From a virus: 64,000 nt of DNA. Position 1 is the stretch's first letter; each line of letters opens with the position of its first letter. Shown piece by piece: positions 12,315 through 61,939 of the stretch. Below the pieces are notes generated by a model, which was given only the letters and a program-made list of their open reading frames with translations, was not told where the DNA came from and made no database searches. The stretch is from the IMG/VR virus record IMGVR_UViG_3300027733_000032; one strand, given 5' to 3'. Position numbers and translations under genes: made by a program.

Positions 12315-12349
12315 TTTTCGGCCTTGGGTTAAGTCTCGAATCTAAGGGC
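12293..12349 (+). promoter_or_regulatory. putative -1 programmed ribosomal frameshift signal
   Basis: A_AAA_AAA at 12293-12299 in X_XXY_YYZ register; 7-nt spacer; stem gcccttag (12307-14) / ctaagggc (12342-49); -1 frame open from 12281 to 22699. Confidence 0.72.
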
Positions 12350-12406
12350 CTAGGGCCAAAAATTGGAACACGACTTAGTGGTGGGCTTCGTGCAGCACCG
12401 CCAGGA

Positions 12407-15400
12407 ATGTCATTTGTTGACATAACAGGAACCGTTGACGCAGATACAGACGGAATAGTGTTTGAAGGCAAGCCCGGTCTTGAACGACCCATAATCCCTA
12501 GATTCCTTGTACCTAAGAATCTTGCTCGCAAAATTTCTTCACTCACCGAAGGCGACGCCCTAGAAATAGAAAAGCAACGACGCAGTGGTGACGGCAATAT
12601 TTCCTTTGACGAAACAAAACTTCGCTCAATTATTGAAAAAATTGGCGGAGACGTCAACTCCTTGAAGCCCGTGGACGATACAGCCGAAACCGGCATGCGT
12701 AGTGCGAACGCCTCAGACGGCCCGGATTTCCAAGAACCACCGATTGCCGATGTACCAGAACAGTTTGATGGTTTCTGGACCCCAGACGAAGAACAATTGC
12801 GCGACCTAGATAAGCGTTCTGGTCGCAGGACACCTCCTCCTCCTCCTGCCAATATCGGGCAGAAGTATGTAATTTCACGGGATGATGATGGCGTTTATTT
12901 TGCGGAGAATATTTCAGCAGAAGATGTTTGGTCGCTTCGTTCCGGTGCATCAAAAGCGCCGAAGCGTCCTTTCTTTGCCCCACGTGGAGGCGGGAATAAG
13001 CCAGATAACGGCGAAGGTTATTACTTCTCTACAAACGGAAAACGCTATTGGGGCAAGTATGGCGCAGCGGGAGCGTTGGTCCGTCGTAAAAATTCAGACG
13101 GAGAATACGAATATTTTCTAGCGAGACGCGCTGATGGTATGTCGGTCGGTGGTGGCAAGTGGTCATTCCCTGGTGGGGCACACAAAGATAAAGAAAATTC
13201 AAAACTTCCAGGTGCTACTGCGATTGAAGAATTTGGCGAAGAGGTTGGTGGAGATATCTCTACACTCAAACCAATTCACACCTACACAGACCAGGTTGCC
13301 CCTGACTGGAAATACGACACTTACGTGTTTGAGGTTGGGCCGGATGAACTGAATGACTTACGGTCGATGGACGGCGAAAGCACTGATACGGGTTGGTTTA
13401 CGGCATCTGACATTATACAAATGGCAGAAGACGACAAACTTCTAGAGTCATTCAAACGTTCAGCAAAAGAAGTATTTGCTCTTTCTGGAGATGAAGTCAA
13501 GGGCAATAAAACTACAAGAAAAATTAAAAAAACATTGAAGAAAATTAGTGGCGAAAAAGTTACTTCTTGGCAAGAAAAGATAAAAAAATACGAACCAATT
13601 GAACCAGAAGATTATTTTGATATCAATAATGAAATGCAGTCTGATTTTGGTATTTCTATTGGCCAAGTGATGCAGGATGAATACGATGAAGGCGCATCTA
13701 TTAAGGAGATTGCGGAAAACTGGGGAATTTCAGCCCATGAAGTTGAAAAATTGCTTAGTGAAAATAAAAAGGGCGGAATGTCATCAACTTCCGTCGGACA
13801 AATCATGCAGGATGAATACGACGAGGGTGCGTCAATAAAAGAAATTGCAGAAAATTGGGATATAACGACTCAAGAAGTTGAAGATTTTATGAGTCGACCA
13901 CCTTCTGTCGGGATGTCATCTGCCAAAACGAATAGAGATTCACGAGGGCGCGACGCAACGCCAGCAAAAAAGAAAAAATTAGACTCCGTTATAGATTTTG
14001 TTATAGACAAAATTAGTCCAGTCACAGTAATCCAAGCATATATAGATTTTTCTGATAGACGACAGGAAAAAAAGAATCCAAGCCTTACGGCTGAACGTCT
14101 TGCAAGAGAAGAAAAAATGAAGTCAGGAGTCGATAAAGCAGGCAAATCAGGCATATCTATTGCTACAAAAATGGCATTACCAGAGTACAAGACGCTTATG
14201 GAGAAAGTTTCCCTAAATGGGGAGACTGTTCTGGCAAGTACATCAGCAAGAACTGCCGAAGTTCAAAAACTTATCGACAATTTGGCATCAAAAGTTGATG
14301 GTGATTTGGATGGAATGGATTTCTCCAAAGGAAACTTCTCTGGCATTGATTTTAAAAATTACTCATTACGTAACGCAAGTTTCTTTGGCTCCACTCTTGA
14401 TAAATCTAATTTTTCTGGATGCATTATTGACAGCGCCACTTTTGAAGATGCTTCTTTAATTGATGCAAATTTAAGCAAGATAAGTCAAGCATGGCGCATC
14501 GATTTCTCGGGAGCGAATCTAACAAATGCAGATTTAACCAAACTCAATATGCACTCCGCTCTATTGAACGAAACAAACCTTGAAGGGGCAAAACTTGATG
14601 GAGTAAATCTAATCATGGCTGACATTAGGGATATGGATTTCTCTAACGCTCGAAGCATGAGGGGTGTCTTGCTAGAAGAAGTACAGGGAGAAGGTGCAAA
14701 CTTTGGTGGTCTCGATATGACCAACTCATCCTTTGTCTCCGCAAACTTGACAAACACTAATTTTAGTAATGCAAATTTAACTCGTTCAGATTTAAGAAAC
14801 GCAAAACTGGATAAGGCTGATTTTAGTGGCGCAAACATGGAGGGTATTGAACTAGAAAAACCAGGTTTATCTCCATCCAGCATGAAAGAAACAAAATTTG
14901 ACAATATGCCGACCAAGGGCGAAGAGGGCACCCCTTCGGGTATGAGTTCCCTTACGCGTCCCTATCGTGATACCAGTGATGAAGAGTTAAAGGCCCTGTA
15001 CGAAAAATATTTACGTTACCTAGGCGGCCCTGGGGACAAGGGTGACAGCGATTTTACATACATGCGACGGTCAAAAGAATATGACAAAATTAAGAAAGAA
15101 ATTGCTCGGCGTGAGAAAGATGGCAAAAAACCAAGCAAGGGAATGAGTTCTGAAACAAAGTTGCCAGGAAATAAAGAAATGCCAGGATTACCAGATGATG
15201 AATTAACATCAAAACTTGATGACAATGTAAATTCGCTCAATGAACTGGAAACTCTTCTTGACGATGGAGAAATTGACCTCGCCGAGTACAGAAAGCGTCA
15301 AATCCCATTACGTAAAGAAGCGGCAGAATTGGGCGCAGAGAAAAAACGTCGGTCTGGTGAAAAGCCAAAAACTGGTGAAACTGGCACTCTAAAAAGAGAA

Positions 15401-35161: not shown

Positions 35162-38100
35162 AATTGCGTGCAGTTTTAGTAGGAACTTTTTACGACAGCA
35201 AGTTGTATTACTTACTCGACCCCGTTGGTGAGAAAAATTCAACTGGTGCTCTCGTTGATAAAAAGGGAAATGTTGAGTACGTTAAATTCTTTCATTTCAT
35301 TAAATCTAACCCCAATGTCAAAGAATTAAAATTCAGCAAATTTCATCGTTTCCTCTGGAATGCCCCCAGTCCTGAAGATAAGCCCAAGTGGATGCGTACG
35401 TTCATTAATGGCACCCAGCCAGTCGGCGAAGAAATGTTGCAGGGTGCAAAGATAATCACCGAACTCTCTCCTGTTGTTGAGAAAAAACAAGACATAGGAG
35501 AAAGGGCTCTTCAGTTTAAGTCAATGAATGCATCACAAAACGCATCACGAATACAGGGTTCTGTACTTGCTAGAAGCGTTAAGTCCATTAGAGAAAAATA
35601 TGGATTTAAGGGTATTGGAATGTCAATAGGAAACAAGCCAGCCATAGATGGTGATGGTGATGGATTTGTAGATGACGGGCTTCCAACAATGAGGCCATTC
35701 ATCCCTGGCTTCGACTTTGTCTTAGATGCCGCCGGGAACATTCGGGAGACCAAACCTACGAATCAGATTACAAAACCCGTAACTCGTGGCGGGATGAGAA
35801 GTGGTGTCGTGACAAGACCACAGACACTCGAAGATAGGCTTGCTCCAATTTCAGAACAGGAAATGCGAGATAGTTTTAGAAAAATTCGCTCATATGTTGA
35901 GATGAAATTCAACGATGGTGTCCCTTTTTCAAAAAAAGGCGAGGCATTAGCAATACTTAAAAAAACTATTCCGTCTTTTGCCTCTGGCGAATCATACATT
36001 GAGTTTTTAAATAATTTGCCGAATGATGATGATGTTATCCCTGATTGGGCAAGGCGATACCTGGATTCCTTCCTACTCTCAATAGATGCCCAACCAATGT
36101 CTGCTCAATTTAATTATCATATGAGAAGAGCAGCGGATAGTAAGAGTTACGAAGGTGCAGTCGGCACTAGGCCCGGAACCAATGATTATGTCATGGTCGA
36201 CCCAGTAGGGGAAAAGTACGCTCCAACACGAACAAGGCAGCCCCTTATTGTTTTTTGGTACAAAGAAGCAGTTGCAGTAACGCCAGCAGTATCGGTTACT
36301 GCCGATAAAAGAATGGCTCCATTCTTAGTAAGCCATGCAATTTCTGCAAACGCAATGAATGAGCAACTCTTGAATGCCGGGATAACTAAGCGCCAACTAG
36401 AAGATTTGAACAATCTAGATAGGGTTGATGCAACACTTGTGAGTATTATTACTTCACTAAATGAAATAATTCAACAAAATCCAACTGCGAGAGTTAATGA
36501 TGCTGAAAAAATATCACAAAACCTAGTTAATGCCATTGAGGCTTTTGTAGATGTAAAAATATCTAATTCAGTCATAGACCCTAAAACTAATTTTTTTCTT
36601 GAAACTCCAAAAATTCCAGCAGTAACTTTCAAAGACTCCAAAGATAGAGAAAAGCCTTTTATACAAAGCAATATTTTGCGACAACTCGTAGACAAAATTG
36701 TAAAATCCAATAACAATCCTTTGCTTTCAGACTTGCTAACAAGTGCCCAGGATGCGAGTTTGTCGGCTCAGCGAACAATTTCTAGTGACAACACTCTTAG
36801 AAAAACTCAAAGAAAACTATCATCCATCATGGAAGATGCGCGAGTTTTAACGACCGGCATGATTGCAGTGCATGAATCAAATCACATGCTACAAAATATT
36901 CAAGCATATATTGATGTGCAAAATGAAGCATCTATTCTGAGAAAAAAATTAATAGACGAACGCATTAATGCAGCAAACAAATTGCAGATTCCAATAACTC
37001 CCGAGATACTCGCAGCAATAGAAGATGAAATAAAAGTAGAAAATTTATATCAAGATTTATTTGTTGAAAAAGCAGTAAAACTTGCTAAGAGCGATATTGA
37101 TTTAGCAAAGAGTCGACTCCTTCATGCTGATTTGGCGCGTGTCGACGCAATTTCCTTAAACTTAGAACGCGATAAAAAGTCTCCTGAATATAAAAAAACT
37201 CCGGACGAAGCACCCGCTCATTATGGATGGAGAAATACGGATGCCGTAGTTGATGCCACGAATCAAATGATATTGAAGTGGGCTGAATTCAATAATCAGG
37301 GTGATTCTTCTTTGTCTGACAAGCAAAAATTAGCAAAACAAGCAATAGTAGATTTTCTAAAACAACCACTATTTGATGGAACTAATGAGATAAAAATTGG
37401 AGAAGGGATTGCTCGTATACTAAATCAATTGGACGCTATCTACGTTGGCGACCTGTCTACTGCGTTTGCAAACAATGGGCCTAGATTTGTATCGGGAGAA
37501 AATCTTAATATTGGAATGGTCGCAATACTCCTTAATTCAGCACTGATTGAAGATGCTCAGCGAAGAAATATCTTTAGTGGATTGAAATTGCGCAATTATT
37601 CAGCACTTCTTAATGAAGTTGGATTTCCTGATTTCGCTATTATGGACATGAATGGCGATGGAGTGAAGATACAGGGACTCGATATTAATGAGTCAAGGAA
37701 ACTATCTGCTGCAATCATGAATATGAATAGACTTGCCCTGTCAATTCCTACCGACCCAACAAACGGCATGGTATCTCCGTCACTGAGCGTGAGAGCAACA
37801 ACTGCGTTGAGGGCATTTCCTGACGATGCAATGCTGCCATGGCCATTTTCAAATTTGACCAAAACTGAATTCCTAGCACTACCGGATGATACTTTCATTA
37901 AAGGATATGAAAAATTAATTGATACATCATTAAAGGCACTTTTGGGCGTCGCAAGACCACAAGATATAGGCACGTTCCTTGAAGATTCATTAATATCAAT
38001 GAATTGGTGGGACAAACTGTCAAAAGAAGAAATAGAACTACTTCTTGAAGTGGGAAAACGAATTGGTGAACCGAGCATCAAGACGGGCAGGTCGGGTACG

Positions 38101-41456: not shown

Positions 41457-44400
41457 AAAATTACGCCATCCTTAGAGACGCGGTCGAGGAAAAAGTATTT
41501 GGCCTCGTCATTGAAAAAGATGGTGGTTTTCGTTTCTACGGAGCCGATGACAGAGCAAAAGAGTGGGCTAATTGGGCTAACTCGACATCACTCAAGTCCC
41601 TACAAGAAGCACTTCCGGTTGGCGTCATTGCCACCGACAAGCGTCCATTAGTGAATGATACTGAATTATTTATTGAATCACTTATTGAATCTGCATCAAA
41701 TGCTGGCGAAATAAAGAAGCCGACTTTTTCATACAAGAGTTCATATGTTACTAGAGCAAACTCATCAACCCCGTCAGCCCGAGATTTTCAACTGCGTTCG
41801 TTCAATATCGACGCCAGACAGAATGCCATCAACTTCAAGGTTTACGCATTTAAGAATGACCAGAAGTCATCTTCGCTAATGGCGAAAATTCGTTCGGCTG
41901 GTCTTGGCTTCAATGAAAAAACCGGTGAATTCAGAAGCAATGACATAACAATTTCTCATTCCTCGCTACAGCAGAATATCGAAACTACATACACCAAGTC
42001 GCTACAGCGCAATATTGGTTTCAATGTCATGGCAGCCAAGAATGTTTATGCTAAATCACTCAGTCCTTTCTATACGCACCCCAAAGTCATTGAACTCAAA
42101 AGACTCGGTGGTGCAATTGGTCCAAAGTTGGGTCGTGGACTACGTTCCGCTCCGATGGGAATGGTATTCGTCGACGTTACCGGAGCGATTGATGCTGACA
42201 AGGATGGCATTGTCTTTGAGGGTAAGCCTGGATTAGAACGACCAATTATTCCTAAATTCATTCTTCCAGAAGGTGTCGGTCGTCGTGTGGCTTCACTGAT
42301 TGGTGGAGCAGCAGAACAGAATGAAAAGAATCGCCGCTCGGGCGCGAATGGTGGTGGAGTAATTGACGAGGCAAAACTTCGCAGTATTCTCGGAACTGAC
42401 GCCTCATCCCTCAATAAATTAAATGCTCCTTCTCCGTTGACTGATAGCGATAACGCAAATGCCACTGGCATGCGTTCTATTGCTGGGAACATTAGAAGTC
42501 GACGTGATGCGATTATCGCTAAACGTACTGGCTCGATAGACCTGTCTAGGGTTGGGCGTGGTGAAAAGACTCAGTTGAATACCGGCGATTCGCGCGCTGT
42601 TGAAAAAATGACATGGGATGATTCGGCAAAGGAATTAATTGTCACGTTTGCTGGTGGTCGCACATATACGTACAACAACGTCGACGACAGTTGGGTTGAT
42701 GAACTAGAGAAAAATCCTGATGCACTCGGTCGCATCATGAATGACATCAAGAAGGCTGGATACGATTTCACTTCAGGTGGAACCCACGCTCCAGACAAAA
42801 CGCTTGCCAGCAGAATGCAGGGTCGCCGTGAGGCGGCAGGAATGCGCTCGGCTAGAACCGGCAACAATAACCCGCTCAAGCAATCCGAAGTAGATGAACT
42901 TTTCTTCGACAATGCTGCATGGTCAAATGATGCGCTTCAGTTCGGTATAGATACGGACTCTCGTGGGAATTATGATATTGAGGGAAATAATCCATTGTCA
43001 GATGTTTTGTATCGAGAATTCCCCGGCAGATTCAATGTAGATGAAGGTGGCAGAGTCGGAGTACCACGCCAAGACCCTGAAGTTGTTTTTGATTCCTCAA
43101 ACATGAGCGATGAAGAACTTGCTCTTTTCACTGACATTCTCGCAGAAAATGACCCTGCAGTCTTGAAAGATTTCCCTACTAGTTCAGGTACTGGCATGTC
43201 CTCTCGCAAGGGACCAGACGCGACTACTAAAAAGACGAATTTGTCCGAAACGAAGTGGAAAGGCAAGCGTCTTTCAGATGATTTGCTAAGTAGGGAAGAT
43301 TTAAGTGGAGAAGACCTTTCTGGTGCCAATCTCGAAGGTGTGAATTTAAGTAATAAAAACTTCACTGGAGCGAATTTAAGCGAAGCCAATTTATATGAAG
43401 CCAATTTGCAAGGCGCCCGCCTCGTAGATGCTGACCTTTATGCAGCCGATTTAATTAAAGCAAATCTCGAAGATGCAAATCTCGAAGGCGCACGTCTAGA
43501 GTATGCCGATTTGCGTGAAGCAAATTTATTAGATGCCAATTTGAATGGAGTAAATTTAAACGATGCTCAACTTGGTTTTGCAAATCTAGACAAGGTTGAC
43601 CTTGGGGGCGCCAAACTCAGTGGCGCTGACCTAACTGGGGCATCATTATGGAAAGCAAATCTTGAAAATGTAGACCTGAGTAATGCTTATTTAGGCAATA
43701 TTAAATATATGACAAATGCCAAACTACAGGGGGCAAATCTCAGAGATGCAGACCTCAGAGGTACGGACTTGTCCATGGCAGACATGACAGATGCAGACCT
43801 CAGGAATGTCGATTTTACTGGCGCAAACCTAGATGGTGCAATTTTTTCTGGAGCAAATCTAAATGGCACAAAACTAGATAAGGGCTGGGAACAAAGCGTT
43901 GGCATGCGCTCATCAAGGAAGCCAAGCAATAATGACTTTGACACGAATAGATTTCTTCCCTCATTGGCTGACAGAGAAAACTACGTTGCTAGTGACGAAT
44001 ACGAAGCAGACCTAGAGGATTGGCTCACTCGTTTTCCAAGAAAGACAGAAGCGGATTTCCGACGCAGCAAGACGTTCATGGAAAACGTAAGCATGTTTAA
44101 TCCAGGCCCGGATGTCTCTGAATTCTCAAGAGAAGCAGACATTTACGACGGATGGTCTCCTGAGGAAATTGATTCAGGCCTACCCGACACTCTCTGGCGA
44201 GGTATGAGTTCACGTACTAGTGGCCTCACTCCAGAAGGCAAACGCGATATTAATGACGCAACAAAGAAGTTGTCAGATTTCTCGCGCAATTCAGCGTTTG
44301 GTGACGTGTATCCAGGTGCAGAAAAATTTGACAGCAATAAGAGACTGCATCAATCCATTAGTGACATGTTCGAGGATGCAGACATGCCTTCGCAACGTGT

Positions 44401-47072: not shown

Positions 47073-47098
47073 ATATCACTGCTTTAGGTGGATTGAAA

Positions 47099-50000
47099 AT
47101 GGCTGCTCTATCATCGAAAACTATGTCCAAGATGAGGGCATTGCGTCAAGCACAAAAACTTGGTTGCTCTGGTGCTCATCAAATGGACGACGGAGCATGG
47201 CATCCATGTAGTAATCATGACGACTACGTCAGTGCAAAAAAGCGCATTCAGTCATCGTCCGTAATAGGGACTCCCCCACAACGAGATGCTCGTGGTTCTA
47301 ATAAGATTAAAAAACAGTGGGAAACTCTAGGACAACGACCAATATCTGCAATTGACAATATCCAGGGTGGTGGCATTGTCGCCGGAGCGCCGTCTGCGCT
47401 TATTGGTGGAGGAATGGGCACAAAGTCCCTCGGGTGGGCGCCCAACGATAATGACCCAGATGTATTTAGCGATGTAGAAGTGGCGCGTAATAGGTCTCGT
47501 CAATTGGGATGTATCGGTGTTAGTCGAAGAATTTCTCGTGGTGGCAAGACTGTCTGGATGCCATGTACCAACATGAGCGACTATGCCCGCCTTGCCGGAA
47601 CCACATCCCTTGGGCGTCGCCATATGCGCCAAGCAGCAGAACGAACAATCACTGAGGCTTTCAAGAAGTTAAAACCAAAGCCCAAACGCGAGCGAAGTAA
47701 ATCGCTATTTTCTGAACTCCACCTAGAAACACACAAGAAAGTTCTAGCAGCGCAAGTTAATGGCGCACAGGTTGCTGAGATGGAATTTAAAGGACTTGGG
47801 CCAAAATTAGGAAGAGGCCTACGGTCCGCCCCTCCCGGTATGGTGTTTATCGACGTCACAGGAGCAATTGACGCCGACAAAGACGGAATTGTTTTTGAAG
47901 GGAAGCCGCTCGAAAGACCTATTATTCCAAGATTCACTATTCCTGAAAGTCTTGCAGGGCGTGTTTCTAAACTTATGGAAGGAACCGCTGAGCAAAACGA
48001 AAAGAATAGGCGTCTCAGCAGTGACCCTATGGCTGGCGCGATTACTGAACGTGATGTTCAAAATTTAGTTAGCAATCTTGGAGTTGGCTCATCTGGATTA
48101 TCTAGTAGTCGACGAACAAGAGAGTGGGCAGAAAATACCGTACTTACTCCAGGAGTTCTTCCTCCAGTTGATGCTGGAGTTTCAATACCCAAGAAGTTTG
48201 TCAGAGCGGCTAAAGGTACAGTCAGGGCAAGAACTTGGCCAATGCGTAACGTTTCTGGAAAATATGAGAATAACAGTAACGAGCAACTGAAGTGGCTGGT
48301 TGATGACAACGTCATATCTAGCCCTGGCACGCTTCGTACTGCTCTAGAAAAAAGCCCCTACTTGGTTGGGTCACCAAAAAATCTTTCACGACGCATTGAG
48401 GACGCAGAAATTGATTACGATGCTGGTCAACAACTTGCTCGGTCATTAAAAGACCAAATCGACACAAATCCTGCGGTAGCGAATTTTATTCGGAGATATG
48501 GTCTTCCGGTCATGGTTGTGACAAACCATCAACCCAACACTGAAACTGCAAACTTTGGTCCGACCTCATGGATGTCAACAATGGCTGGGTGGGCGCCTCA
48601 GGGCTTCATAGGTTTTAATGCGGCAACCTTCCCAAGTTCTTCATTCTATGCAAACGGCGGACATCGTGACACTGACAATGTCATGAACATGCGACACGAA
48701 TTGGCCCATGCATGGGAAACAATGGCCGCCAAAACAAACGATAAAGCAAAAGAACATTACATTGCACAATTTGCTGAAATGTTTCAAGGTCTGCAAGAAA
48801 TTGAAGACAGAGGAGAAGCAACATTCAGAACTTCTTATCACGAGGCCGCATGGGGAACTGATGACGAGCATGAATCGGCATTAAGAATAAGCAACTATGC
48901 GGAAACTGCTCGCATTGAATGGTTTGCCGAAGCATTCGCCCATGCGACTGATGGCGATGCAAACAATCGCAACAGAGTGGACAATCTCTCAAAGCAAAAT
49001 ATGGCAGCGGTTCTTGGTTTAGATATGTGGGAATTGGAATCAATGCTCGGTGGGAATGGCTTCTCTTCTTTTGATGACGACCCATTCTCTGGGGGTATGG
49101 CTTCATCGCAAAGATTTGGAAATTCGATTTTCCCATCATCAGATAATTTAGACTCGAAAGAATATGTTGATTGGCTAAATCAAAATCCTGGATATATTGA
49201 CGATGCTCCATTAGAGATGCTGTTGCGAACAGGCTCTGAATCACTTAACGAAAATCGTCGCATGGGCATGCGCTCGTCCACGGGCCTACTAGGCAAAGAC
49301 GAACAACGCGCACGAGCAATAATTTTCGACAGGGTAGATAAAAGCAAACTTGGCAAACAGCAACCCACATATCATCACGTTGGGGGCATCCCTGGTTCGG
49401 GTAAATCTACACTAGTCACTACTGGGGTTCTTGGTGTACCAAATAGTAACAACGCTTTTCATATTGACCCAGATGAGATAAAAACACACATGGACGGGTG
49501 GGGTGGTGGGCGTGGCGCTCAAGCCTTGCACCCACGCTCACGACGCTTGACCGACCTATTTATGGCCGAAGCGGCAGAATCGCATGGAGATGTTGTCGTT
49601 CAAGGAATAGGCAAACGAACAGAACATCTTGCAATGATGCGTGATGCTGGATACAGAACTGTTGGCCATTTTGTCTACGTCCCATCCAAGGAAGCGGATG
49701 CAAATATTAGCAAGCGTGCGGAGAATGGCGGAGCAATTCTTGGTAATGGATATGGTAGTCACATATCGGATGAGTTGCGTTCACGAGGAACTATTTCCAG
49801 ACAAATAACGTCTGGTCTTTATGACGAATTTTATCTTTGGGATAATACTGGGCGCACTCCGAAAATTGCTGCAGAACGCCGCCAGGATGGGACATTCATT
49901 ATTCATGACCAAAAAGTTTGGGATAAGTTTTTTGGGGACAAGAAGTATGGCGCTGGTTCATTGAGTAATGCCGAATGGGCAAAACAATACTTTGAAGAGA

Positions 50001-53000: not shown

Positions 53001-56000
53001 TGGTTCATACTGGCGTACCAGTACTTGACGGTGGCGTTCTTGACCCATCATTCACGCTGCCCAAGGGCGGCGATGGGACTTATGCACGTCAAGGCATGGA
53101 TACTCAGAGGCTCAATGCCATAACCCGAAACAGTATCATCAACCGCTACGAGGAGGCGGAGCAGGATTTGAACGCTTATCAACTTGCGTTGAAAGAATAT
53201 GATGAAACTGGAGTTTGGGATGGGCCAAAGTTGGCTCAAAACACAAGAGTTCCAGGTAGGGATATTGGTCATAGGGACTATGGCACCTACATAGAAGGCC
53301 AAGATGATGAACGCATTAATCCTGAATATTTAAGAGATTTGGCGCGTCGCTATATTGATAATGGGAAAATAGTAATGGCTCGGTATGAATATGCTTATCC
53401 GCTAGCAAAAGCAGGAAAAGAACATCTCAGTTACAGCCATGTATCACAAGGACCTAGTACTGGATATGTACGCAACGACTTCCCAACAAGTAAAACATAT
53501 CTCGTAAGAGTCCCCAAGACAGAAGTAGTGGAAGGGTTTCCGTCTCAGGAATATCAAATTTTTGGGGTCAGAACACCAATAGCAAGTTTTGAAGTACCCA
53601 ATCAGTTCAATTCTCCCAATGTGTACGAAGCACAGGACGCTGCTATTGCTCTATTTGAGCAGGCCGCACAGAAATATGTTTCAAAAGATAAATTGCCATC
53701 CGGGATGCTTTCTCGTCGTGATTTGATTTCACTGCATGGGAAAACACTCCAAGAAGTACTAAATGCATTAGAGATTGACGATGCCGAAAGCATGCGCGGC
53801 TTTGAGGAATTAGAAACAGCAATTGACAAACTTGACGACCGTAAAATAAGAAAAGCCCCATTTCATCCAGCGGTGAAAGATTCGGTCAATGACATTATTG
53901 ATTCAATTGCAGTCAGCGTATCTTCTGATGGAATCATAATGCTTCATTCAAAACCAAATCCAATATTTCAAAAAGAATACCCAGTTCAACGAGACTGGAG
54001 ACTGATTGAATTAACAAAACCAGAAAATGTTGAAGCAGCCTTAAAGAAGGCATTGGAAAATCAATTTACAACAAAAGAAGATGGTGAATGGATTAACTAC
54101 TACTCCCCTGCGGGAGAATTAGTGGCGCGTAAACGCTATACGGGAGAAACTGGAAATCCGGAGTCAATAGAAGGTATGTATAATGTCGCAGAATGGGAGA
54201 TATTGGATGAGAAATACGCCGATATTCTTGGTGGCGACGGTGGTGAGTTGTCAAGATTTGAAGATTTTTTAAGAAATTTACTTAAAAAACTTTCCAAAGG
54301 CAGTCGGGTTAGTCCTGTGAAAGCAATAGAGCGTATTCCAATAAACAATTTATTTGTAGGTTCTTTTCTTGCTTCATTAATTAATCCAGAGGCAGGAGAC
54401 ATGGGCGGTCGAGATGGATTGCATGATGCCTTCGGTCATTTTGCTATGGGCAGGGGTGTCGATAGGCATGGCGAGTGGGCAAATGCTCTTGCAATAATGT
54501 CATTAGTTGACCATCCTGATTTTGATGCAACCCCAGCAGAAAGGAATGCTGTAAAACAAGCATGGTTTGGCGAATACGGTTTATATTTTATTACCAACTT
54601 CAATGAAGATGTAACAATGGAGCCGTCGGAACTTTGGGGCGCAATAGCCAATTATGTAGGAAATTTTGATGACATTTTAAAAATTTTAGATGATTCTCCA
54701 CGTTCCTCTAGTGGCATGTCATCGCGCTCGATGCCAATTGGTCGGGTGAGTGACTTAATGCTTAGGGAAATATCGGACCAAGAAATTTTGCACAATAAGA
54801 AACGTGCCCTAATTATTCGTGCACAGAATAATCCCGGCGTTCTTTCTAGTTCAGAAGATTACAGAATGTCACATACCGCTCCACTGCGTGATGCTGGGGC
54901 GCCATTAAGCGACCTGACAGGAAACGGGATATACCCAGAAGACGTATATACGGATGATGGTTACAGAATGTATAGCCACGGGCAGATGTTGCTGAATAGC
55001 AAGATGTTCAAGTTGATTAAAGACATGCGCGGAAAGCCCGAGAAGGAAATAACCATCTATCGCGCTGTTCCCAAGAATGTTGGCGATGATATAAATGCAG
55101 GTGATTGGGTTTCTCCGTTACGCGAATACGCCCAATATCACGGCGAATCCAATCTTGATGGGGATTACAAGATTGTTTCTAAGAAAGTCAAAGCCGGAGA
55201 AATCTTTACCGAAGGTAATTCATGGCTGGAATGGGGCTACTCTCCTTCTGACGACAGCAGAACTGGAATGTCTTCTGTCATGACGCCAACAAGACCAACG
55301 ATTCCACCGCCTCCCGGAGCGCCAACAGGACAGGCAATTCAGAAGCCAGAAATAACACCATCAACCAGGCCAACATTGTCGTTGACTCAAGAGGCCGTCG
55401 AGGCCATTGAAGATTTCAGAAACGCTATTAAGGTCGACAGCAATGACCCTTACACGTTGAACGGGTCGTCTTTTGTGGGCCAACTTGACGGCATCTTTGC
55501 ACAAACATTTTTATCAGATTTGCCAGAAGGACATAACATCCTCATAAGAGATGTCCCGATTACGAGCAAGACAAAGGCAATTCCCTACGCCGTTGCAACA
55601 AAAATCAATGGAGCATTAGTTGTTAAGCAAATTACGCAAGAAACATACGACTATCTCTACAGAGTACGAAAACTTGATAAACGATTGCATCAACAGAACA
55701 ATATAAGTTCCTTGGAGCAAATGAACCTAAAAGCAATTGAATACGAAATAGCAAATATTGCAGAACTTTCAAAAAAATACAAAATGAAAGTGCCTCAACT
55801 TTTATTAATAGACGCAGCAAATGAAAACGATAAATTTTCGCAAGAAAAATATGGTAATCCAAACTTTGTTTCTGCCGCAACAATGAGTGCTAATGGAGTA
55901 ATGACGGTTTATAACGGCGCTCTGCCGAGCGTCCATACTCTGCGTCACGAATGGGGTCATTCTTTTGACAGGGTCGCTGAACGAATTTCAGAAGATGCCG

Positions 56001-56914
56001 GAGGAATATTTGGAATCATAAAGCAGTGGCATCATGAAAAAATATCGGACGGCGTAGCATGGAGAAACGCCTCGGATGGGGATAAAAGAACTTCACAAGA
56101 ATGGAAAAATGAGTTTCTTGGCAAAGGTTGGACTATTAAGTTTGTGAGCAGGCGTTTTACTGCGGGAACAGATGGGGTTACTCCGTATGCCCAAACAGCG
56201 TATGATGCTGGCGAATATACTCTGATTGAAGATTTTGCTGAATCTGTAGCATTATTCCTAATCGATAGAGAAAAAGGTTATATTGGTAAAAAATTTAACG
56301 AAAATGGCATGGAGCGCGGGAATGTCAGATTTGCAACCCTCTATCCAAAGCGAGCCGAAATTCTTACTGCGCTCTTTGACCAGTCAGACGATTGGATGCG
56401 AAGCCCACAAGGAATGTCATCCAAAACCAAGAACTTTGATAGCCGTTTTGAGAAGAAGTATGGGCAAGTAAACCCAGACGGAGATGGGGATTGCTATTCT
56501 GCCGCTTTTGAATTAGCCCAAAAACTAACCAACAGATTTAGCAAAGAAGAAGGAACGGAAGTCAAAGTCGTGCATGGCATACCCCTCGGAACTGGTGGTG
56601 AGGCTGCTGGCATCAGGTATGGACATGCCTGGGTTGAAGTCGACAGGACGGCAGGAGAGATTCTGCGTCTCAATGAAAAACTACGTGTTGCCAAAACGGA
56701 GTCAGAAAAGGCTCGCATTGAGTCAAATATCAGACAGGTGCGCTTGATGGGCGAAGCAACGGTCTACGATTACTCCAATGGCGGGAAACATGAAATTCCA
56801 AAATTCTTGTACTACGCAATGGGGAATATCGACGAATCAGAAACTCGACGCTATTCAGTTGATGAGTCAAGGAAGTACGCCCTCGACACCAAGCACTACG
56901 GACCATGGAAATAA
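47099..56914 (+). CDS. giant polyvalent protein 4 (2x DUF3721-like, zincins, zeta toxin-like, pentapeptide, ArdC+MPTase, ART-like, papain/transglutaminase-like; 9 GMxS)
   Basis: LGCxG...PC x2; HELAH ~48695; GGIPGSGKST..IDPDEIK ~49380; WVRPW..YRGSN..GGQVQKGE..HELVHWTGH..YAYEELVAE; IYRAVP..GDWV..EWGY; HEWGH; DCY..GHAWVE; ATG at 47099 (track TTG 47093). Confidence 0.87.
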   Translation: MAALSSKTMSKMRALRQAQKLGCSGAHQMDDGAWHPCSNHDDYVSAKKRIQSSSVIGTPPQRDARGSNKIKKQWETLGQRPISAIDNIQGGGIVAGAPSALIGGGMGTKSLGWAPNDNDPDVFSDVEVARNRSRQLGCIGVSRRISRGGKTVWMPCTNMSDYARLAGTTSLGRRHMRQAAERTITEAFKKLKPKPKRERSKSLFSELHLETHKKVLAAQVNGAQVAEMEFKGLGPKLGRGLRSAPPGMVFIDVTGAIDADKDGIVFEGKPLERPIIPRFTIPESLAGRVSKLMEGTAEQNEKNRRLSSDPMAGAITERDVQNLVSNLGVGSSGLSSSRRTREWAENTVLTPGVLPPVDAGVSIPKKFVRAAKGTVRARTWPMRNVSGKYENNSNEQLKWLVDDNVISSPGTLRTALEKSPYLVGSPKNLSRRIEDAEIDYDAGQQLARSLKDQIDTNPAVANFIRRYGLPVMVVTNHQPNTETANFGPTSWMSTMAGWAPQGFIGFNAATFPSSSFYANGGHRDTDNVMNMRHELAHAWETMAAKTNDKAKEHYIAQFAEMFQGLQEIEDRGEATFRTSYHEAAWGTDDEHESALRISNYAETARIEWFAEAFAHATDGDANNRNRVDNLSKQNMAAVLGLDMWELESMLGGNGFSSFDDDPFSGGMASSQRFGNSIFPSSDNLDSKEYVDWLNQNPGYIDDAPLEMLLRTGSESLNENRRMGMRSSTGLLGKDEQRARAIIFDRVDKSKLGKQQPTYHHVGGIPGSGKSTLVTTGVLGVPNSNNAFHIDPDEIKTHMDGWGGGRGAQALHPRSRRLTDLFMAEAAESHGDVVVQGIGKRTEHLAMMRDAGYRTVGHFVYVPSKEADANISKRAENGGAILGNGYGSHISDELRSRGTISRQITSGLYDEFYLWDNTGRTPKIAAERRQDGTFIIHDQKVWDKFFGDKKYGAGSLSNAEWAKQYFEERMPESGGMSSSRGVRRNSISLNSVNNILENSNFLPDISAKEDARLLNGLLKRDNGRTLLSDHKLENMDVSNLYISFPEFNNVDIENCDITNGVMSNGTFINLSARDIDMTNGDFSHSFFANSSIDGSYLAGSNFSNSIIVGNLSLKNTDLRGANLSNLTFSDENGYATIDLEGSMLDGAYLGNTDLTRLVANENTEWGDVNVGYMNSTIPRSLRSEGLKEEERLNSLHLMGAGEIHGAFNDALIDVNSSKDKATKISALNNIDAIHSHLSGINTELMTMEDDRRLTLERFNSTTSQLLSMKNSKLSDGSLINPVKFIESNDIAGWVKEVNSTREKNPSAFKDMPPNKLLADASQIHREQQILLDSLNKFDSEISEAKQKQTLLSSINAILFADKDNVFGTKLTIPKKANRVKSNRAHIATVREQVSNNTIKDNRNDLNPRAVKMLKQFSGIVAGDTVGMRSAKATNDSKKAEDKIEEMYSKLSDAILASLDEADGDKWVRPWNLGALLPRNAKTKQAYRGSNIFNLGITQTDSNHTHPMWGTYKMWQELGGQVQKGERGTIIVHWSSMEKEIIGPNGTIETRRYMRPRLHNVFNIDQVSGVDPEKYALPVLSDEQRVQRMDSIIEELGATIRESTNMPTRNGGFGLRAFYNPTDDSISLPPFSTFTEPLGYYQTAMHELVHWTGHSQRLNRLDMNEFGNQDYAYEELVAEFGSAFLMGVLGMEAEPQQNHSEYIKGWKRKIKDDPDTVKNAISDAQKAVNYILNNSPTFRDENGMNDVNSDAIDSDGTLPVAEEMGDIVKNIVSPSSDVPGLISPGRDMVGMRSKIVSEWLDVTAHDSFGEAGSELRNTFGRTDLEKLQKVLQDEKSVLSKTIDEWQKTGIWNGETNGVALPRTQYPKKGITRNISAEESSGMGDKDALGSIFNGYLSQIEKQLEHVNDRIANLDRMENDGDIAHINAISIVDLPNFAALAERGKQIRESRGSMEDRAWSLTKDDPDATWLVHTGVPVLDGGVLDPSFTLPKGGDGTYARQGMDTQRLNAITRNSIINRYEEAEQDLNAYQLALKEYDETGVWDGPKLAQNTRVPGRDIGHRDYGTYIEGQDDERINPEYLRDLARRYIDNGKIVMARYEYAYPLAKAGKEHLSYSHVSQGPSTGYVRNDFPTSKTYLVRVPKTEVVEGFPSQEYQIFGVRTPIASFEVPNQFNSPNVYEAQDAAIALFEQAAQKYVSKDKLPSGMLSRRDLISLHGKTLQEVLNALEIDDAESMRGFEELETAIDKLDDRKIRKAPFHPAVKDSVNDIIDSIAVSVSSDGIIMLHSKPNPIFQKEYPVQRDWRLIELTKPENVEAALKKALENQFTTKEDGEWINYYSPAGELVARKRYTGETGNPESIEGMYNVAEWEILDEKYADILGGDGGELSRFEDFLRNLLKKLSKGSRVSPVKAIERIPINNLFVGSFLASLINPEAGDMGGRDGLHDAFGHFAMGRGVDRHGEWANALAIMSLVDHPDFDATPAERNAVKQAWFGEYGLYFITNFNEDVTMEPSELWGAIANYVGNFDDILKILDDSPRSSSGMSSRSMPIGRVSDLMLREISDQEILHNKKRALIIRAQNNPGVLSSSEDYRMSHTAPLRDAGAPLSDLTGNGIYPEDVYTDDGYRMYSHGQMLLNSKMFKLIKDMRGKPEKEITIYRAVPKNVGDDINAGDWVSPLREYAQYHGESNLDGDYKIVSKKVKAGEIFTEGNSWLEWGYSPSDDSRTGMSSVMTPTRPTIPPPPGAPTGQAIQKPEITPSTRPTLSLTQEAVEAIEDFRNAIKVDSNDPYTLNGSSFVGQLDGIFAQTFLSDLPEGHNILIRDVPITSKTKAIPYAVATKINGALVVKQITQETYDYLYRVRKLDKRLHQQNNISSLEQMNLKAIEYEIANIAELSKKYKMKVPQLLLIDAANENDKFSQEKYGNPNFVSAATMSANGVMTVYNGALPSVHTLRHEWGHSFDRVAERISEDAGGIFGIIKQWHHEKISDGVAWRNASDGDKRTSQEWKNEFLGKGWTIKFVSRRFTAGTDGVTPYAQTAYDAGEYTLIEDFAESVALFLIDREKGYIGKKFNENGMERGNVRFATLYPKRAEILTALFDQSDDWMRSPQGMSSKTKNFDSRFEKKYGQVNPDGDGDCYSAAFELAQKLTNRFSKEEGTEVKVVHGIPLGTGGEAAGIRYGHAWVEVDRTAGEILRLNEKLRVAKTESEKARIESNIRQVRLMGEATVYDYSNGGKHEIPKFLYYAMGNIDESETRRYSVDESRKYALDTKHYGPWK

Positions 56915-57586: not shown

Positions 57587-58897
57587 ATGTCAGAAGACAC
57601 TTCCCGCCTGAATGAACTGCAAAGCGCACTTCGTTCAAAAATGTCAGAAAACAAGGCTATTGCCGATTCATTCCAAATTGAAAACGGTACCGTCGTTGTT
57701 TCAACCGCCCAAAAGTCAGCCTTTGACGTCAACATGAAGGACATCAGAGAAATCAAGAGCCTCATCGAGGGTCTTGAAGGAATGCGCGATGTTGACGCAT
57801 GGGGTTCGGCTCCTCAGGGCTCGGTTGCTGGTGCAGCCGCCGCTGGTGGTTCGTACAGCAATAACACTCCTCAGTTCAAGTCAATCGGTGACGAATTCAT
57901 CCAGTCTGCTCAGTTCAAGAGCCTTGACGGTGGACGCAACGGTGCCAACATGGCTTCGCCGTTCATCACCACCAAGACACTTACTGGCGGCAACTACAAC
58001 GTGAAGGACGTCTACTCGGGTCTCCCCTCGTACGACCGCCCTTTCGGTGGAATCCAGCGTGACCCCATCGTCGTCCCCGCAATGCGTACAAAGCGCGTCC
58101 GTGACTTGTTCCCGGCCCGCACTACCACTGCCGCAATCATTGAATACTTCCGTATGACCGGTTTCGCAAACAACGCTGCTACAGTTGCACAGCGTAATAG
58201 CGACAACACCAACTTTGGTGTTAAGCCGCAATCATCCTTCACTTTCGTGGGTGAGCAGGCTCCGGTCCGCACCATCGCTCACTGGGAAGCAGCACACCGT
58301 AACGTTCTCGCCGATGAGCCGCAATTGCGTTCAATCATCGACAACGAATTGATGTACGGTCTCCGCTTGCAGGAAGATGCTCAGATTCTTTCCGGTAACG
58401 GTACTGGCGAAAACCTCCTTGGCGTTCTTAACACCACTGGTGTTCAGGAATACTCATGGTCGGACGGCGCTACCACTCCGGTTGCGGACAACAAGGCTGA
58501 CGCAATCCGCCGTGCCGCAACCCTCGCATTCCTTGCCTACTACGAGCCGACCGGCGTGGTTCTCCACCCGAACGACTGGGAAGACATCGAATTGTCGAAG
58601 GATGCCTACGGTCAGTACCTCGTGGCCGTTTCGGTGGCCCTTGGTGGCGAGCCCAAGTTGTGGCGCATCCCCGTCGTCGAAACTCCCGCCATCCCCGAAG
58701 GTACCGCTCTTGTCGGTGCATTCGGTACCGGCGCACAGTTGTACGACCGTGAGCAGGCCAGCATCCGCATCAGCGAACAGCACAGCGACTTCTTCGTCCG
58801 TAACGCCATTGTGGTGTTGGCCGAACAGCGTTTGGCTCTCGCAGTCAAGCGTCCGGAAGCCTTCGTTAAGATTGATTTCGACAGAGCCCCTGCCTGA
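57587..58897 (+). CDS. major capsid protein, HK97 fold
   Basis: N-terminal coiled-coil delta domain then QFKS; VRTIAHW, LxxQEDAQILSGNG.GENLLGVLN, VLHPNDW, LWRIPVVET, FVRNAIVVLAEQRLALAVKRPEAF. Confidence 0.95.
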   Translation: MSEDTSRLNELQSALRSKMSENKAIADSFQIENGTVVVSTAQKSAFDVNMKDIREIKSLIEGLEGMRDVDAWGSAPQGSVAGAAAAGGSYSNNTPQFKSIGDEFIQSAQFKSLDGGRNGANMASPFITTKTLTGGNYNVKDVYSGLPSYDRPFGGIQRDPIVVPAMRTKRVRDLFPARTTTAAIIEYFRMTGFANNAATVAQRNSDNTNFGVKPQSSFTFVGEQAPVRTIAHWEAAHRNVLADEPQLRSIIDNELMYGLRLQEDAQILSGNGTGENLLGVLNTTGVQEYSWSDGATTPVADNKADAIRRAATLAFLAYYEPTGVVLHPNDWEDIELSKDAYGQYLVAVSVALGGEPKLWRIPVVETPAIPEGTALVGAFGTGAQLYDREQASIRISEQHSDFFVRNAIVVLAEQRLALAVKRPEAFVKIDFDRAPA

Positions 58898-58930
58898 TAA
58901 ACGCCCTGGCGTAATTTAGTGAAGTAGGCG

Positions 58931-58968
58931 AACCCCCAGTACCGGTTAATCCCGGGCTGGGGGTTTTC
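58931..58968 (+). terminator. intrinsic terminator after the capsid gene
   Basis: aacccccag ... ctgggggtt stem followed by a T-run. Confidence 0.8.
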
Positions 58969-59223
58969 CATTAACGCACAAATGTGAGAAAGATTTATGG
59001 GACGTAAGTTCGAAACAGAAGATGACGACATGGATTGGCAAAATCTAGAAAAAGTCGCCAAGAATTTCAAAGGCTCAGCGGATGATATAGAAGAAATCAT
59101 CTATGAACTGGGACCAAAAAAGAAAAAGAAGAAACAGGTTGGTAAATACAATCTGAGAGACGATTTTTAACATTACTTTCATTAGTGTTGTAATGTATAA
59201 TTTATAATGACCAAGGAGTTGCG

Positions 59224-59706
59224 ATGCGCAAAAAAGACTTAATGTCGGCAATAATCATGATGGAAGGCTCAGGAGAGGGCAAACTGGTAAGCGCCTTAAA
59301 AGAAGCAATGGCAAATGCCGTAGTTTTGTATTTCACAGCCCATCGTGCTCACTGGAACGTTACTGGTCCTGATTTTTTTCAATACCATGCCCTATTTGCC
59401 GAAATCTATGAAGATATCTATGGTTCGATTGACCCATTTGCCGAAAACATACGCAAAATGCGAGCATTTCCTCCTGCACTAGGAGAAATGATGTCCCTGG
59501 CATCCATTTCAGACGACACCAAAGTGACCACACCACGCGAACTTGCTTCGGACTTTATGATGAAAAACACAGGCATGGTTCAACTTCTCAAAGATGTATT
59601 TACGGTCGCCGAGGATGCCAACGAGCAGGGTGTAGCGAACTTCATCGCTGAAAGAATTGACCAGCACGAAAAATGGGATTGGCAACTTCGCTCTTCCCTT
59701 GGCTAA
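59224..59706 (+). CDS. dps: Dps family DNA-protection/ferritin-like protein
   Basis: AHRAHWNVTGPDFFQYHALFAEIY...IDPFAENIR...HEKWDWQL ferroxidase signature. Confidence 0.92.
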   Translation: MRKKDLMSAIIMMEGSGEGKLVSALKEAMANAVVLYFTAHRAHWNVTGPDFFQYHALFAEIYEDIYGSIDPFAENIRKMRAFPPALGEMMSLASISDDTKVTTPRELASDFMMKNTGMVQLLKDVFTVAEDANEQGVANFIAERIDQHEKWDWQLRSSLG

Positions 59707-59713
59707 TTAAGGA

Positions 59714-61939
59714 ATGGACATTCACATGGATGACGTTGAGTTCAAAGCAGAGAAAACTATCTCATGCCCAATTGCCACTCAGGACATACCTGTCAACTTA
59801 AAAAATAGACAGAATGCAATTGATAACGGTGGATATGGTCCGCTCAATCCGACGCAGGCAAATAATGCTTTCTGGAAAAAGAAAGCGTCTCGCTGGAATG
59901 TGACAATCGGTGAGTCAAAGAAGCAACTATGTGGCAACTGTGCTGCCTTCATTCGCACCCCGAGAATGCTTGATTGTATTGATAAGGGTCTCGGCAATGA
60001 AAAAGGCAATGCTGCATGGGATGTAATTAATGCTGGCGAACTCGGATACTGCGAGGCCTTTGACTTCAAGTGTGCATCTGCTCGAACCTGTGATGCATGG
60101 ATTGTCGGCGGACCAATTACCAAGGAAAAAGGAAAGAAACAAGAAACAAAGAGTCTTGAAAATTTTCTATCCGTAGAAGAGGGTAATGCAATTGAATTTG
60201 TTGAGTCGCTAAGTAATCGTGAATTCGTGGCCCTGTTTCCAAATGAGTACACTGACGAGGCTAATGACGTCAAGTGGCTATTTGATGTTAGTTACGATTT
60301 TGCTGACCGTCTTATTAACTCTAGACATGCGGGCGCCATTTCATACAATGAAAAATCAGCAGAATTACGTGACCCAAAAGGTGGCCTAACCGCCGCTGGA
60401 CGCAAGTACTTTAATAACAAAGAGGGCTTAAATCTCAAGCCTGGAGTCAAGGGTCCGGCAGATACTCCGGAAAAAATGCGACGCAAAGGTTCATTCCTCG
60501 TTCGTTTCTTCACTAATCCTTCAGGTCCGATGCAGGACGACAAGGGCAACCCAACACGCCTTGCATTGTCTGCTTCGGCATGGGGGGAGCCAGTGCCAAA
60601 GACCGTAGCAGCAGCAGCAAAACTTGCAGCAAAAGGTAGCCGTCTTCTTGAGAGATATAAGAATCTCAAAGAAGCAAAAAAGAAGAAAGATGCTTTTGGT
60701 GACATAGAAATCAAAGAACTTGGTGCTCCTGTTGCTCGACAGGCGGGCACTGTAGGTCAATCAAATGCGCCACGCAAACCGCAGACAATTGGCGGTCGTG
60801 GTGGTGGTTCTCCTGACGAGAACTATGACCCCAATTCGCGAGACGCAGATGGCGATGGCAGCGTTCAAGAGGGTACAGATTTCATGCGTTCCGCACAGCC
60901 TCGTCAAGGAACCGCCGACTCGATGGAACGTAATACCCCTAGAGCAGCAACACTCCCCGCCAAACCCCCTACTGCAGCAAAGGTCCCCGCTAAACCCTCT
61001 GTAGCCGCAACACTCCCCGCCAACCCTCCTGTCAAGCCGACAGTTTCTGGAAATATTGACTTAAGCAAGCGCAAGCCAGTGACGTTACCAAGTGGGGAAC
61101 AGGCAACAGTAAGAAGCATATCAGTCGGATTCGATGATGGTGAAGTCCTCATTCCAACTATTGGGCCCAATGGAGAAAATTGGGACCCTGATACGGATGA
61201 GGGTTACGATGCCGCGGTGTCGCACTATAAAAAAACCGGTCAACACTTGGGTAAATTCAAAACACCAGACGAGGCTACGGCGTACGGCGAGTGGCTACAT
61301 AATCAAGAGGCAGTACGTATTGGTGAGACTCCAGACCCACCCGCTAACACAACCAGTCGGACCTGGCAAACAGACACAGGCTCGGCGGATACCCGTGAAC
61401 GTGGAATAATTCGCGAAGACCTTGAGAAAAGAGGCTTTGACGGCGAGGCATTCAGGAAATTCGTAGATGCGGAATCGCGCAAACTCAAGCCGGGTCAGAA
61501 GACAAACTGGAATCCTGGCCGTTTGCCCAATGGTGGCAAGATTGCCGCTGATGGAACCTACATTCCGCCAGACATGGTTCGTGAAGACGACAAGCGCGTA
61601 AGCGACTATTACCGCAATCGACGTGACGAGAAAAAACCAAATCGCCCGCAAGGTAGTGCCGACAGCATGGAACGGCAAGCCGAGAACGATGAACGGAACA
61701 GAACCGGACGAGGACAGGGCTACGACAAGATTAATTCTCAGGCAGAAATGGATGCCTATAGAGCATCGATGGGATTGCCCTCAATCCCATTTAAGCCAAA
61801 GCCATCGGTTGGTTCGCCAATCGCTCCGAATAAGCCAAAGCCTTCGCTCCTCATGCCTGATTTGCCCAAAAAACCTCGCACCGGATGGCTTTCCCCATAT
61901 TTTGCTGGTGACTATGCCGATGATGAAGGTGGCTATTGA
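59714..61939 (+). CDS. mosaic virion-associated protein (Cys-rich CP.AT.D domain, DUF6321-like, DxDxDG module, low-complexity tail)
   Basis: CPIATQD..NLKNRQ...CGNC...GYC..FDFKCASARTCDAW; DPKGGLTAAGRKY..NLKP; RDADGDGSVQEG; AATLPAKP repeats. Confidence 0.7.
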   Translation: MDIHMDDVEFKAEKTISCPIATQDIPVNLKNRQNAIDNGGYGPLNPTQANNAFWKKKASRWNVTIGESKKQLCGNCAAFIRTPRMLDCIDKGLGNEKGNAAWDVINAGELGYCEAFDFKCASARTCDAWIVGGPITKEKGKKQETKSLENFLSVEEGNAIEFVESLSNREFVALFPNEYTDEANDVKWLFDVSYDFADRLINSRHAGAISYNEKSAELRDPKGGLTAAGRKYFNNKEGLNLKPGVKGPADTPEKMRRKGSFLVRFFTNPSGPMQDDKGNPTRLALSASAWGEPVPKTVAAAAKLAAKGSRLLERYKNLKEAKKKKDAFGDIEIKELGAPVARQAGTVGQSNAPRKPQTIGGRGGGSPDENYDPNSRDADGDGSVQEGTDFMRSAQPRQGTADSMERNTPRAATLPAKPPTAAKVPAKPSVAATLPANPPVKPTVSGNIDLSKRKPVTLPSGEQATVRSISVGFDDGEVLIPTIGPNGENWDPDTDEGYDAAVSHYKKTGQHLGKFKTPDEATAYGEWLHNQEAVRIGETPDPPANTTSRTWQTDTGSADTRERGIIREDLEKRGFDGEAFRKFVDAESRKLKPGQKTNWNPGRLPNGGKIAADGTYIPPDMVREDDKRVSDYYRNRRDEKKPNRPQGSADSMERQAENDERNRTGRGQGYDKINSQAEMDAYRASMGLPSIPFKPKPSVGSPIAPNKPKPSLLMPDLPKKPRTGWLSPYFAGDYADDEGGY
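60942..61032 (+). repeat. intragenic 30-nt tandem repeat (AATLPAKPPT x3)
   Basis: gcagcaacactccccgccaaaccccct / gcagcaaaggtccccgctaaaccctct / gccgcaacactccccgccaaccctcct. Confidence 0.75.

Follow-up and report, generated by a model that had tools for sequence, protein, structure and literature searches.

What do the giant proteins of an uncultured phage's head operon have in common, and could that common element be what brings them into the head? The question is raised by a stretch of viral DNA of 64,000 nucleotides from IMG/VR record IMGVR_UViG_3300027733_000032, referred to here as the window, which represents the reverse strand of a 90-kb viral contig estimated to be about 60% complete. 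A head operon lies on the plus strand of the window, and five of its open reading frames (ORFs) contain a module built around the motif DxDxDG. An earlier note on this DNA had proposed that the module is a reusable N-terminal tag, which docks unrelated cargo proteins in the inner capsid. Our preferred reading, held with slightly less than even confidence and drawn from sequence comparison, is that the module may be a virus-only docking tag, marking proteins for co-assembly into the procapsid or head. To our knowledge, the selection of head cargo is understood in detail in only a few models, such as T4, the core proteins of P22 and T7, and the MuF or gp7 carriers. As a candidate packaging signal defined by its sequence, the module would apply to a large group of uncultured phages whose heads are of the HK97 type.

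The module and its carriers

Three parts make up the module. It opens with a hydrophobic-K-x-(L/I/V)-G motif, continues through 10-40 disordered residues in which Gly, Arg and Lys abound, and ends in an invariant core that reads D-x-D-x-D-G-hydrophobic-V-x-(D/E)-G...R-P(-x-I-P). In the long form, a short strand stands before the core and a 24-residue helix after it, and the unit is usually closed by a G-M-R-S joint. Across 27 sequences, the Lys, G-L-R-x-A-P-x-G, D-x-T-G, D-x-D-x-D-G-I-V-F-E-G, R-P-I-I-P and the R-R at the end of the helix are invariant or nearly so, with D42, D44, D46, G47, I48, V49 and E51 fully invariant. The calcium-loop pattern, in which DxDxDG is followed by a hydrophobic residue and by an acidic ligand downstream, is present in long and short forms alike, and by its sequence the core is a DxDxDG-type calcium loop. 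The module is also better conserved (42-67%) than the N-domain of the giant protein G3 (26-42%).

All five copies were recovered, by the coordinates of their motifs, at the positions where the earlier note had placed them, and all are on the plus strand. The long form occurs in three giant proteins. In G1 (frame open from 12281, stop at 22699) it spans 12296..12712, with K-G-L-G at 12344-12355, DxDxDG at 12437-12454, R-P-I-I-P-R-F at 12485-12505 and G-M-R-S at 12692-12703. In G3 (41453-46714) it follows a conserved N-domain of 200 amino acids (aa) and spans 42053..42487, with the cut-site motif at 42092-42109, DxDxDG at 42191-42208 and G-M-R-S at 42467-42478. The copy of G4 (47093-56914) is located at 47738..48127, behind a 215-aa N-domain that holds two DUF3721 units, with the cut-site motif at 47783-47800, DxDxDG at 47870-47887 and a G-L-S-S joint at about 48095-48106. 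The short form is found in protein M (35158-38370) at 35605..35802, where F-K-G-I-G occupies 35605-35619, DxDxDG 35647-35664, R-P-F-I-P-G-F 35692-35712 and G-M-R-S 35791-35802. It is also found in the ORF 59714-61939 at 60710..60892, with I-K-E-L-G at 60710-60724, Y-D-P at 60824 and DxDxDG at 60842-60859.

The note's picture of a near-identical trio with two looser relatives is borne out by several comparisons. By BLAST, the three long copies share 52-59% identity over 98-130 aa (E 1e-24 to 1e-29), and a hidden Markov model (HMM) built from them scores each at E 1e-63 to 1e-72, with no other strong match in the six frames of the window. The same HMM reaches the M copy (35605-35712) at only E 0.012 and misses the copy at 60710-60892. 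The short form is kept in the orthologues of both M and the 59714 ORF, and a short-form profile made from orthologues aligns with the long-module profile in hhalign at 96% probability (E 3e-9), over 26 columns of the DxDxDG...RP core. The length of the module had been underestimated in the note; the conserved unit continues through the 24-residue helix to G-M-R-S and measures about 100-125 aa.

The module is not N-terminal, as had been stated, but sits about 150-480 aa into the proteins, behind a carrier domain. It starts at aa 214 in G3, 231 in G4, 150 in M and 333 in the 59714 ORF, and in G1 it follows the 494-aa prohead protease ORF (10830-12314, plus strand). This protease has its S78 domain at aa 31-183 and, C-terminal to it, a clade-specific extension of about 300 aa; it is the carrier upstream of the G1 module. 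The carriers, namely the protease extension and the N-domains of G3, G4 and M, are mutually unrelated, with an hhalign probability below 1% for every pair, so that a homology among the carriers was rejected; this supports the claim of one module on unrelated proteins. The module is therefore the sole element common to them. As the note had also described, it precedes the variable part of the proteins, being placed between the conserved carrier domain and the variable effector cassettes.

Among the 51 related viral loci found for the module, its position in the open frame is close to residue 10, residue 210 or residue 470. In the first class, no usable start codon precedes the module, which follows a separate protease ORF; in the second, it is placed behind the G3 or G4 N-domain, both of which are conserved across the clade; in the third, it is fused in frame to the prohead protease. 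When 1.84 billion protein representatives were searched with a profile, 64 matches were obtained; the strong ones are all giant proteins of these classes, and the weak ones are generic repeats of the loop. Among 185,000 prokaryote genomes no relatives of the module were found, and cultured phages gave no match to either the long or the short module, or to the short form linked to the protease. Across viral proteins, the long module is confined to head-operon giant proteins of one uncultured phage clade, and is not mostly a feature of non-virion proteins, the outcome that the note had named as speaking against its proposal.

All five classes retain the module, long or short, and its place is unchanged across about 50 close contigs; a pattern scan finds the five classes with the short form in a wider clade as well, where the protease is about 45% identical. 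The five proteins of the window are exactly the five classes that contain the module across this wider clade. The long and short forms swap at the same site in orthologous proteins; in G002, a complete relative of 137 kb, the protease fusion and the G4-class protein have the short form where the window has the long one. Module trees group partly by genome lineage instead of by protein class, reflecting exchange between classes within lineages, and this fits one shared partner. One copy of the module per protein is normal, two being seen in a few distant ORFs. Within the five classes, the module stands at the boundary of carrier and cargo, never between later cassettes.

An AlphaFold model of the long module has an overall predicted local distance difference test (pLDDT) score of 69. 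Its first 24 residues, comprising the Lys motif and the Gly/basic linker, are disordered, and the remainder, which comprises the 24-residue helix and two short strands that flank the loop, is ordered at a pLDDT of about 80; the model contains no metal. Foldseek gave no match to this model in the PDB at E <=0.001, and the best Z in a VIA-align comparison with 48,161 chains was 2.1, so that no known fold can be named. No usable match was present in the ESM Atlas, no Pfam family covers the module, and sequence and structure searches of the PDB returned no solved structural relative. In short, the module is covered by no Pfam family, solved structure or cultured phage. The best PDB profile match is a weak one to a 33-residue segment of DnaK (E 0.07-0.3), and DnaK is also the top Foldseek row (E 3.9, template modelling score 0.21, likewise weak). 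No significant sequence or fold match to the Hsp70 substrate-binding domain resulted, and the match at E 0.07 may reflect chance or convergence. As an observation on its own, the segment G-L-R-x-A-P-x-G-M-x-F-V-D-V-T-G-x-I-D-A-D of the G3 module (42140-42230) and its equivalents resembles a conserved hairpin of that DnaK domain, at an E of 0.07 that is not significant. Self-cleavage of the FrpC type at Asp-Pro was also rejected: many short forms have D-P before the loop, but the long forms replace it by D-V or D-I, and D-P is therefore not a defining feature.

Cleavage motifs and the protease junction

The Lys that opens the module has a conservation of at least 90%, and its surroundings follow the pattern of HK97-type substrates, with Lys at P1, a small residue, Leu or Ile, Gly and a disordered stretch. 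The HK97-type capsid protein of the window (57587-58897, plus strand), which matches HK97 gp5 at E 1e-52, has its F-K-S-I-G (aa 97-101; 57875..57889, plus strand) placed at the expected end of a delta domain of about 98 residues, and the predicted junction of delta domain and mature protein is F-K|S-I-G, K98 followed by S99. In the alignment with HK97 gp5, mature residue 17 onward matches residue 157 onward of the capsid protein. Capsid orthologues read K-S-V-G at the junction, or G-(S/T)-V-G in two of them. The HK97 capsid itself is cut at K103/S104, with L105 next (PMC10275583). The suggestion that the Lys resembles a maturation site agrees with both the phage's own predicted capsid junction and the HK97 pattern, and we infer that K-x-(L/I/V)-G is a prohead-protease site.

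The module is thus bracketed by the K-x-hydrophobic-G motif in front and the G-M-R-S joint behind, the latter closing it in G1, G3 and M and being replaced by G-L-S-S in G4. As the putative cut lies at its N-terminal edge, the module would stay with the downstream chain up to the next joint. G-M-R-S is likely a processing joint, for which the S78 protease and the zincin of G4 are candidate enzymes. The exact motif occurs in 14 copies in G1, G2, M, G3 and G4 (a further example in G4 lies at 49265-49276) and in no other head-operon protein examined. G-M-R-D of the capsid protein was rejected as a joint, since it is not conserved in the orthologues.

A second type of N-terminal cassette is present in G2 (24570-34877, 3435 aa) at 25083-25202 and in the ORF 39423-41456 at 39615-39818, both on the plus strand. 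It begins with K-x-(L/V)-G and continues with R-C-P-x-G...F-T...C some 30-60 residues on, and it is conserved, including its opening K-x-(L/I/V)-G motif, in all the orthologues seen. Because the version in the G2-class protein of G002 reads V-D-A-D-G-K-F-R-C-P-P-G, the cassette could be related, in diverged form, to the DxDxDG core.

The junction of protease and G1 has an organization of its own. The G1 module is in the -1 frame relative to the protease ORF and begins upstream of the first ATG, GTG or TTG; the first start codon, at 12407, lies inside the module. The protease ORF ends in T-C-A AAA AAA with a stop shortly after. The frameshift signal (12293..12349, plus strand) is composed of A AAA AAA at 12293-12299, a 7-nt spacer and two stem arms at 12307-12314 and 12342-12349. 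All the features of a -1 frameshift site are present, namely a zero-frame heptamer, a spacer of 5-9 nt, downstream structure and conservation. Thirteen loci from independent assemblies, whose proteins have diverged to about 60% identity, preserve the run of seven A residues (eight in one locus), the -1 offset and, 5-7 nt downstream, a GC-rich hairpin (the window, L005, L006, L011, L013, L015, L018, L023, L026, L028, L030, L033 and L035). This is strong sequence evidence for a programmed -1 frameshift that joins the protease to the G1 module.

Relatives in which protease and module are fused in frame (L010, L012, L017, L022, L024, L027 and L049-L053) keep a slippery heptamer, A AAA AAA or G GGA AAA, and a hairpin, and their -1 frame stops after 2-15 codons. 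This would be an inverse layout similar to that of dnaX, where slipping would yield free protease. With slippery signals in both layouts, both should therefore give free protease as well as protease-module-cargo.

Docking and its alternatives

In the mechanism that we propose, the core would dock the precursor as a whole during head assembly, at some conserved part of the interior of the procapsid, the candidate partners being the delta domain or inner face of the capsid, the portal and the protease extension. Because the whole precursor would be docked, one tag could carry a long string of effector cassettes into the head. The S78 prohead protease would then cut at K|x-L-G, as predicted for the capsid protein, and the joints would be cut too, so that carrier domain, tag and effectors would be released within the head and await ejection with the DNA. 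For G1, the carrier would be the protease itself, and the -1 frameshift would set the ratio of free protease to protease-tag-cargo. This reading is preferred because the module is the sole common element, stands at the boundary of carrier and cargo, is more constrained than most of its flanks and is exchanged between classes within lineages. Docking by a tag followed by proteolytic release would also explain the polyprotein design, with effectors strung together and one tag serving many cassettes.

The core is also found bare, outside the five classes. Its exact back-translated pattern occurs in at least 120 viral contigs of IMG/VR, compared with about 0.03 expected by a rough chance estimate. 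In proteins of 500-2500 aa it immediately follows a short basic N-terminal peptide, and distant representatives, among them polyvalent proteins with Zeta-toxin and ADP-ribosyltransferase domains, likewise have it at the extreme N-terminus. At the other end, it forms the C-terminus of small proteins of 76-120 aa (L097:5115-5414, L075:5664-5891, L096:9143-9502), including a 76-aa ORF that lies between a gene for a head maturation protease and one for the major head protein. In PHROGs, the only family with the bare core is phrog_7924, of unknown function, which holds it in the last 30 positions; proteins of this type have a weak head-tail connector signal and lie upstream of tail genes, and the cultured-phage match to such a protein covered its N-terminal half only. 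The core is also present in one LysM protein that adjoins an M23 peptidase. These gene neighbourhoods are virion modules, and as the core occurs at protein termini without the Lys motif, it should have a function of its own.

Could the module instead be a processing cassette and nothing more, a region for recognition and cleavage by the prohead protease, with head targeting left to the carrier domains? The resemblance of K-x-hydrophobic-G to the capsid junction and the HK97 site, its presence in G2 and the 39423 ORF in the absence of the core, the flanking of the module by the Lys motif and the joint, and the predicted conservation of a free, module-less protease would all agree with this. However, the invariant part is the DxDxDG...RP core and not the Lys motif, the core occurs elsewhere at extreme N- or C-termini with no Lys motif at all, and mutually unrelated carriers would each need a docking site of their own. 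We consider this explanation very unlikely. A calcium-binding linker of a generic kind, spread among neighbouring genes by duplication and recombination and stabilising long multidomain proteins with no specific partner, appears highly improbable. DxDxDG loops are reportedly found in many structural contexts, as established by Rigden and Galperin in 2004, and the exchange between classes in the module tree and the generic loop repeats among the weak profile matches would agree with such a linker. But a generic linker would account neither for a copy number of normally one per protein, at the carrier/cargo boundary in five classes, nor for conservation that extends well past the loop, to R-P-I-I-P and to the preceding G-G-L-R-x-A-P-x-G-M, nor for the restriction to viruses.

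A role after assembly is the remaining alternative, and we regard it as fairly unlikely. Here the module would be a calcium-switched leader at the mature N-terminus of the cargo chain, positioning the chain at the portal so that it exits first, or folding at the high calcium of the cell envelope and so aiding exit from the tail. A cut at K| would indeed make the module the new N-terminus, with a basic flexible leader, and the other phages with the core right behind a short basic N-terminal peptide show a similar arrangement. The presence of the core in connector-like small proteins upstream of tail genes and in the LysM protein also speaks for this reading. The N-terminal region of the phage N4 virion RNA polymerase serves injection, according to PMC5512222. 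If the G-M-R-S joints are cut, however, only the first fragment would keep the module and the other cassettes would not be led out, and in the small proteins the core is at the C-terminus.

The docking tag also has several observations against it. G2 and the 39423 ORF lack the DxDxDG core and have the R-C-P-x-G variant in its place. All three gene arrangements of protease and module keep frameshift signals that would yield a module-less protease; as this is a conserved predicted product, the protease probably enters heads alone, and G1 would have no strict need of a tag. The in-frame protease and module of L012 (597 aa), folded in cis, gave a poor and uninformative model, with a junction pLDDT below 50 and no sign of docking. 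Finally, the core occurs in small proteins beside tail genes and in the LysM protein, and not beside head genes only. The shared module on unrelated carriers, its restriction to viruses and its place in the head operon support the note's idea of a docking tag, while the inner capsid as its destination is weakened by the cores beside tail and lysis genes, for which "virion address" is the better fit.

A broader form of the docking tag, which we judge somewhat unlikely, would make the DxDxDG...RP core of about 26 residues a general and portable virion address tag of many uncultured phages and possibly of satellite-like elements, which docks into HK97-fold heads in a calcium-dependent manner, the protease being wired to its cargo by a tunable frameshift. 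The satellite-like candidates in this reading encode only a primase, a small-terminase-like protein and the tagged toxin. As a separate observation, the short contigs in question (L071:3614-4570, L105 and L137) have a Zeta-toxin/ADP-ribosyltransferase protein that starts with the bare core and is preceded by a primase-helicase-like ORF and a small-terminase-like helix-turn-helix protein. Such contigs may represent satellite-like elements by which a toxin is loaded into the head of a helper. In G002, a 68-aa candidate ORF ending in a short core (L070:11369-11575, minus strand) is located in a group of small early-type genes and not in the head operon.

The C-terminal targeting tail of the HK97 maturation protease, described by Duda et al. 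in 2013, and the cargo-loading peptides of the encapsulin literature are reported to dock passengers on the inner face of HK97-fold shells. The shell here is HK97-like and docking by a short element would be analogous, but those peptides are terminal and shorter, contain no calcium loop and have no detectable sequence relation to the module. The T4 capsid-targeting sequence, to which the earlier note had compared the module, is likewise a short peptide common to unrelated head-internal proteins (IPI-III, Alt), with a prohead-protease site and cargo that is ejected with the DNA (reviewed, for example, in PMC3012670). It has about 10 residues at the extreme N-terminus, lies upstream of the cut, is removed, and binds a separate scaffolding core. 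The module, in contrast, measures 60-125 aa, contains a calcium-loop core and is located 150-480 aa into the protein, downstream of the putative cut; the two are not similar in sequence, and in place of a T4-type protease the phage described here has an S78 protease, together with a delta-domain scaffold. The module therefore resembles the T4 signal in outline but fails its testable defining features, neither standing at the extreme N-terminus nor preceding the cut, and the analogy does not hold on these points.

Polyvalent proteins are closer in their domain organization. [quoted passage not shown] As that section defines them, G1, G3 and G4 are polyvalent proteins, with several effector cassettes and virion genes as neighbours. 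G4 contains ArdC-N, MPTase-PolyVal and Zeta toxin domains, and pentapeptide repeats are strong in G1 and G3 and below threshold in G4. In the same section, the link to the head is a fusion to MuF or a portal domain and the processing enzyme is a zincin peptidase, whereas here an un-annotated module and a fusion to the prohead protease take these places. No Pfam match to Phage_Mu_F (MuF / SPP1 gp7) was found in the head-operon proteins at E up to 0.01, and the module is not a MuF-type carrier. The prohead protease of phiKZ-like giant phages and SPN3US acts on many head-internal proteins, cutting them at a shared motif before the DNA is packaged (PMC7411985, PMC10052503). The protease family and the cut motif are different there, and no shared folded module with a DxDxDG core is known to be described for those phages.

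If the docking tag is real, packaged anti-host effectors could be predicted straight from metagenomes, and foreign proteins could be loaded into HK97-fold shells with the tag as a compact handle. Additionally, a protease-tag-cargo fusion controlled by frameshifting would be a new way to set the stoichiometry of cargo.

The head operon around the module

The genes of G1, G3 and G4 are placed between the portal and protease genes on one side and the capsid gene on the other. The portal gene is at 8699-10729, and a further ORF at 22762-24558 lies between G1 and G2, both on the plus strand. The ORF 59714-61939, which carries one of the short modules (plus strand), has DUF6321 in its N-terminal part. 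Directly 3' of the capsid gene is a ferritin-like (Dps-type) gene (59224-59706, plus strand; Pfam PF00210, E 3e-14), an unusual neighbour for a capsid gene that recalls the ferritin-like cargo of encapsulins. At the end of the operon are a homologue of staphylococcal nuclease (61936-62343) and an M24 peptidase of the methionine-aminopeptidase type (63141-63977).

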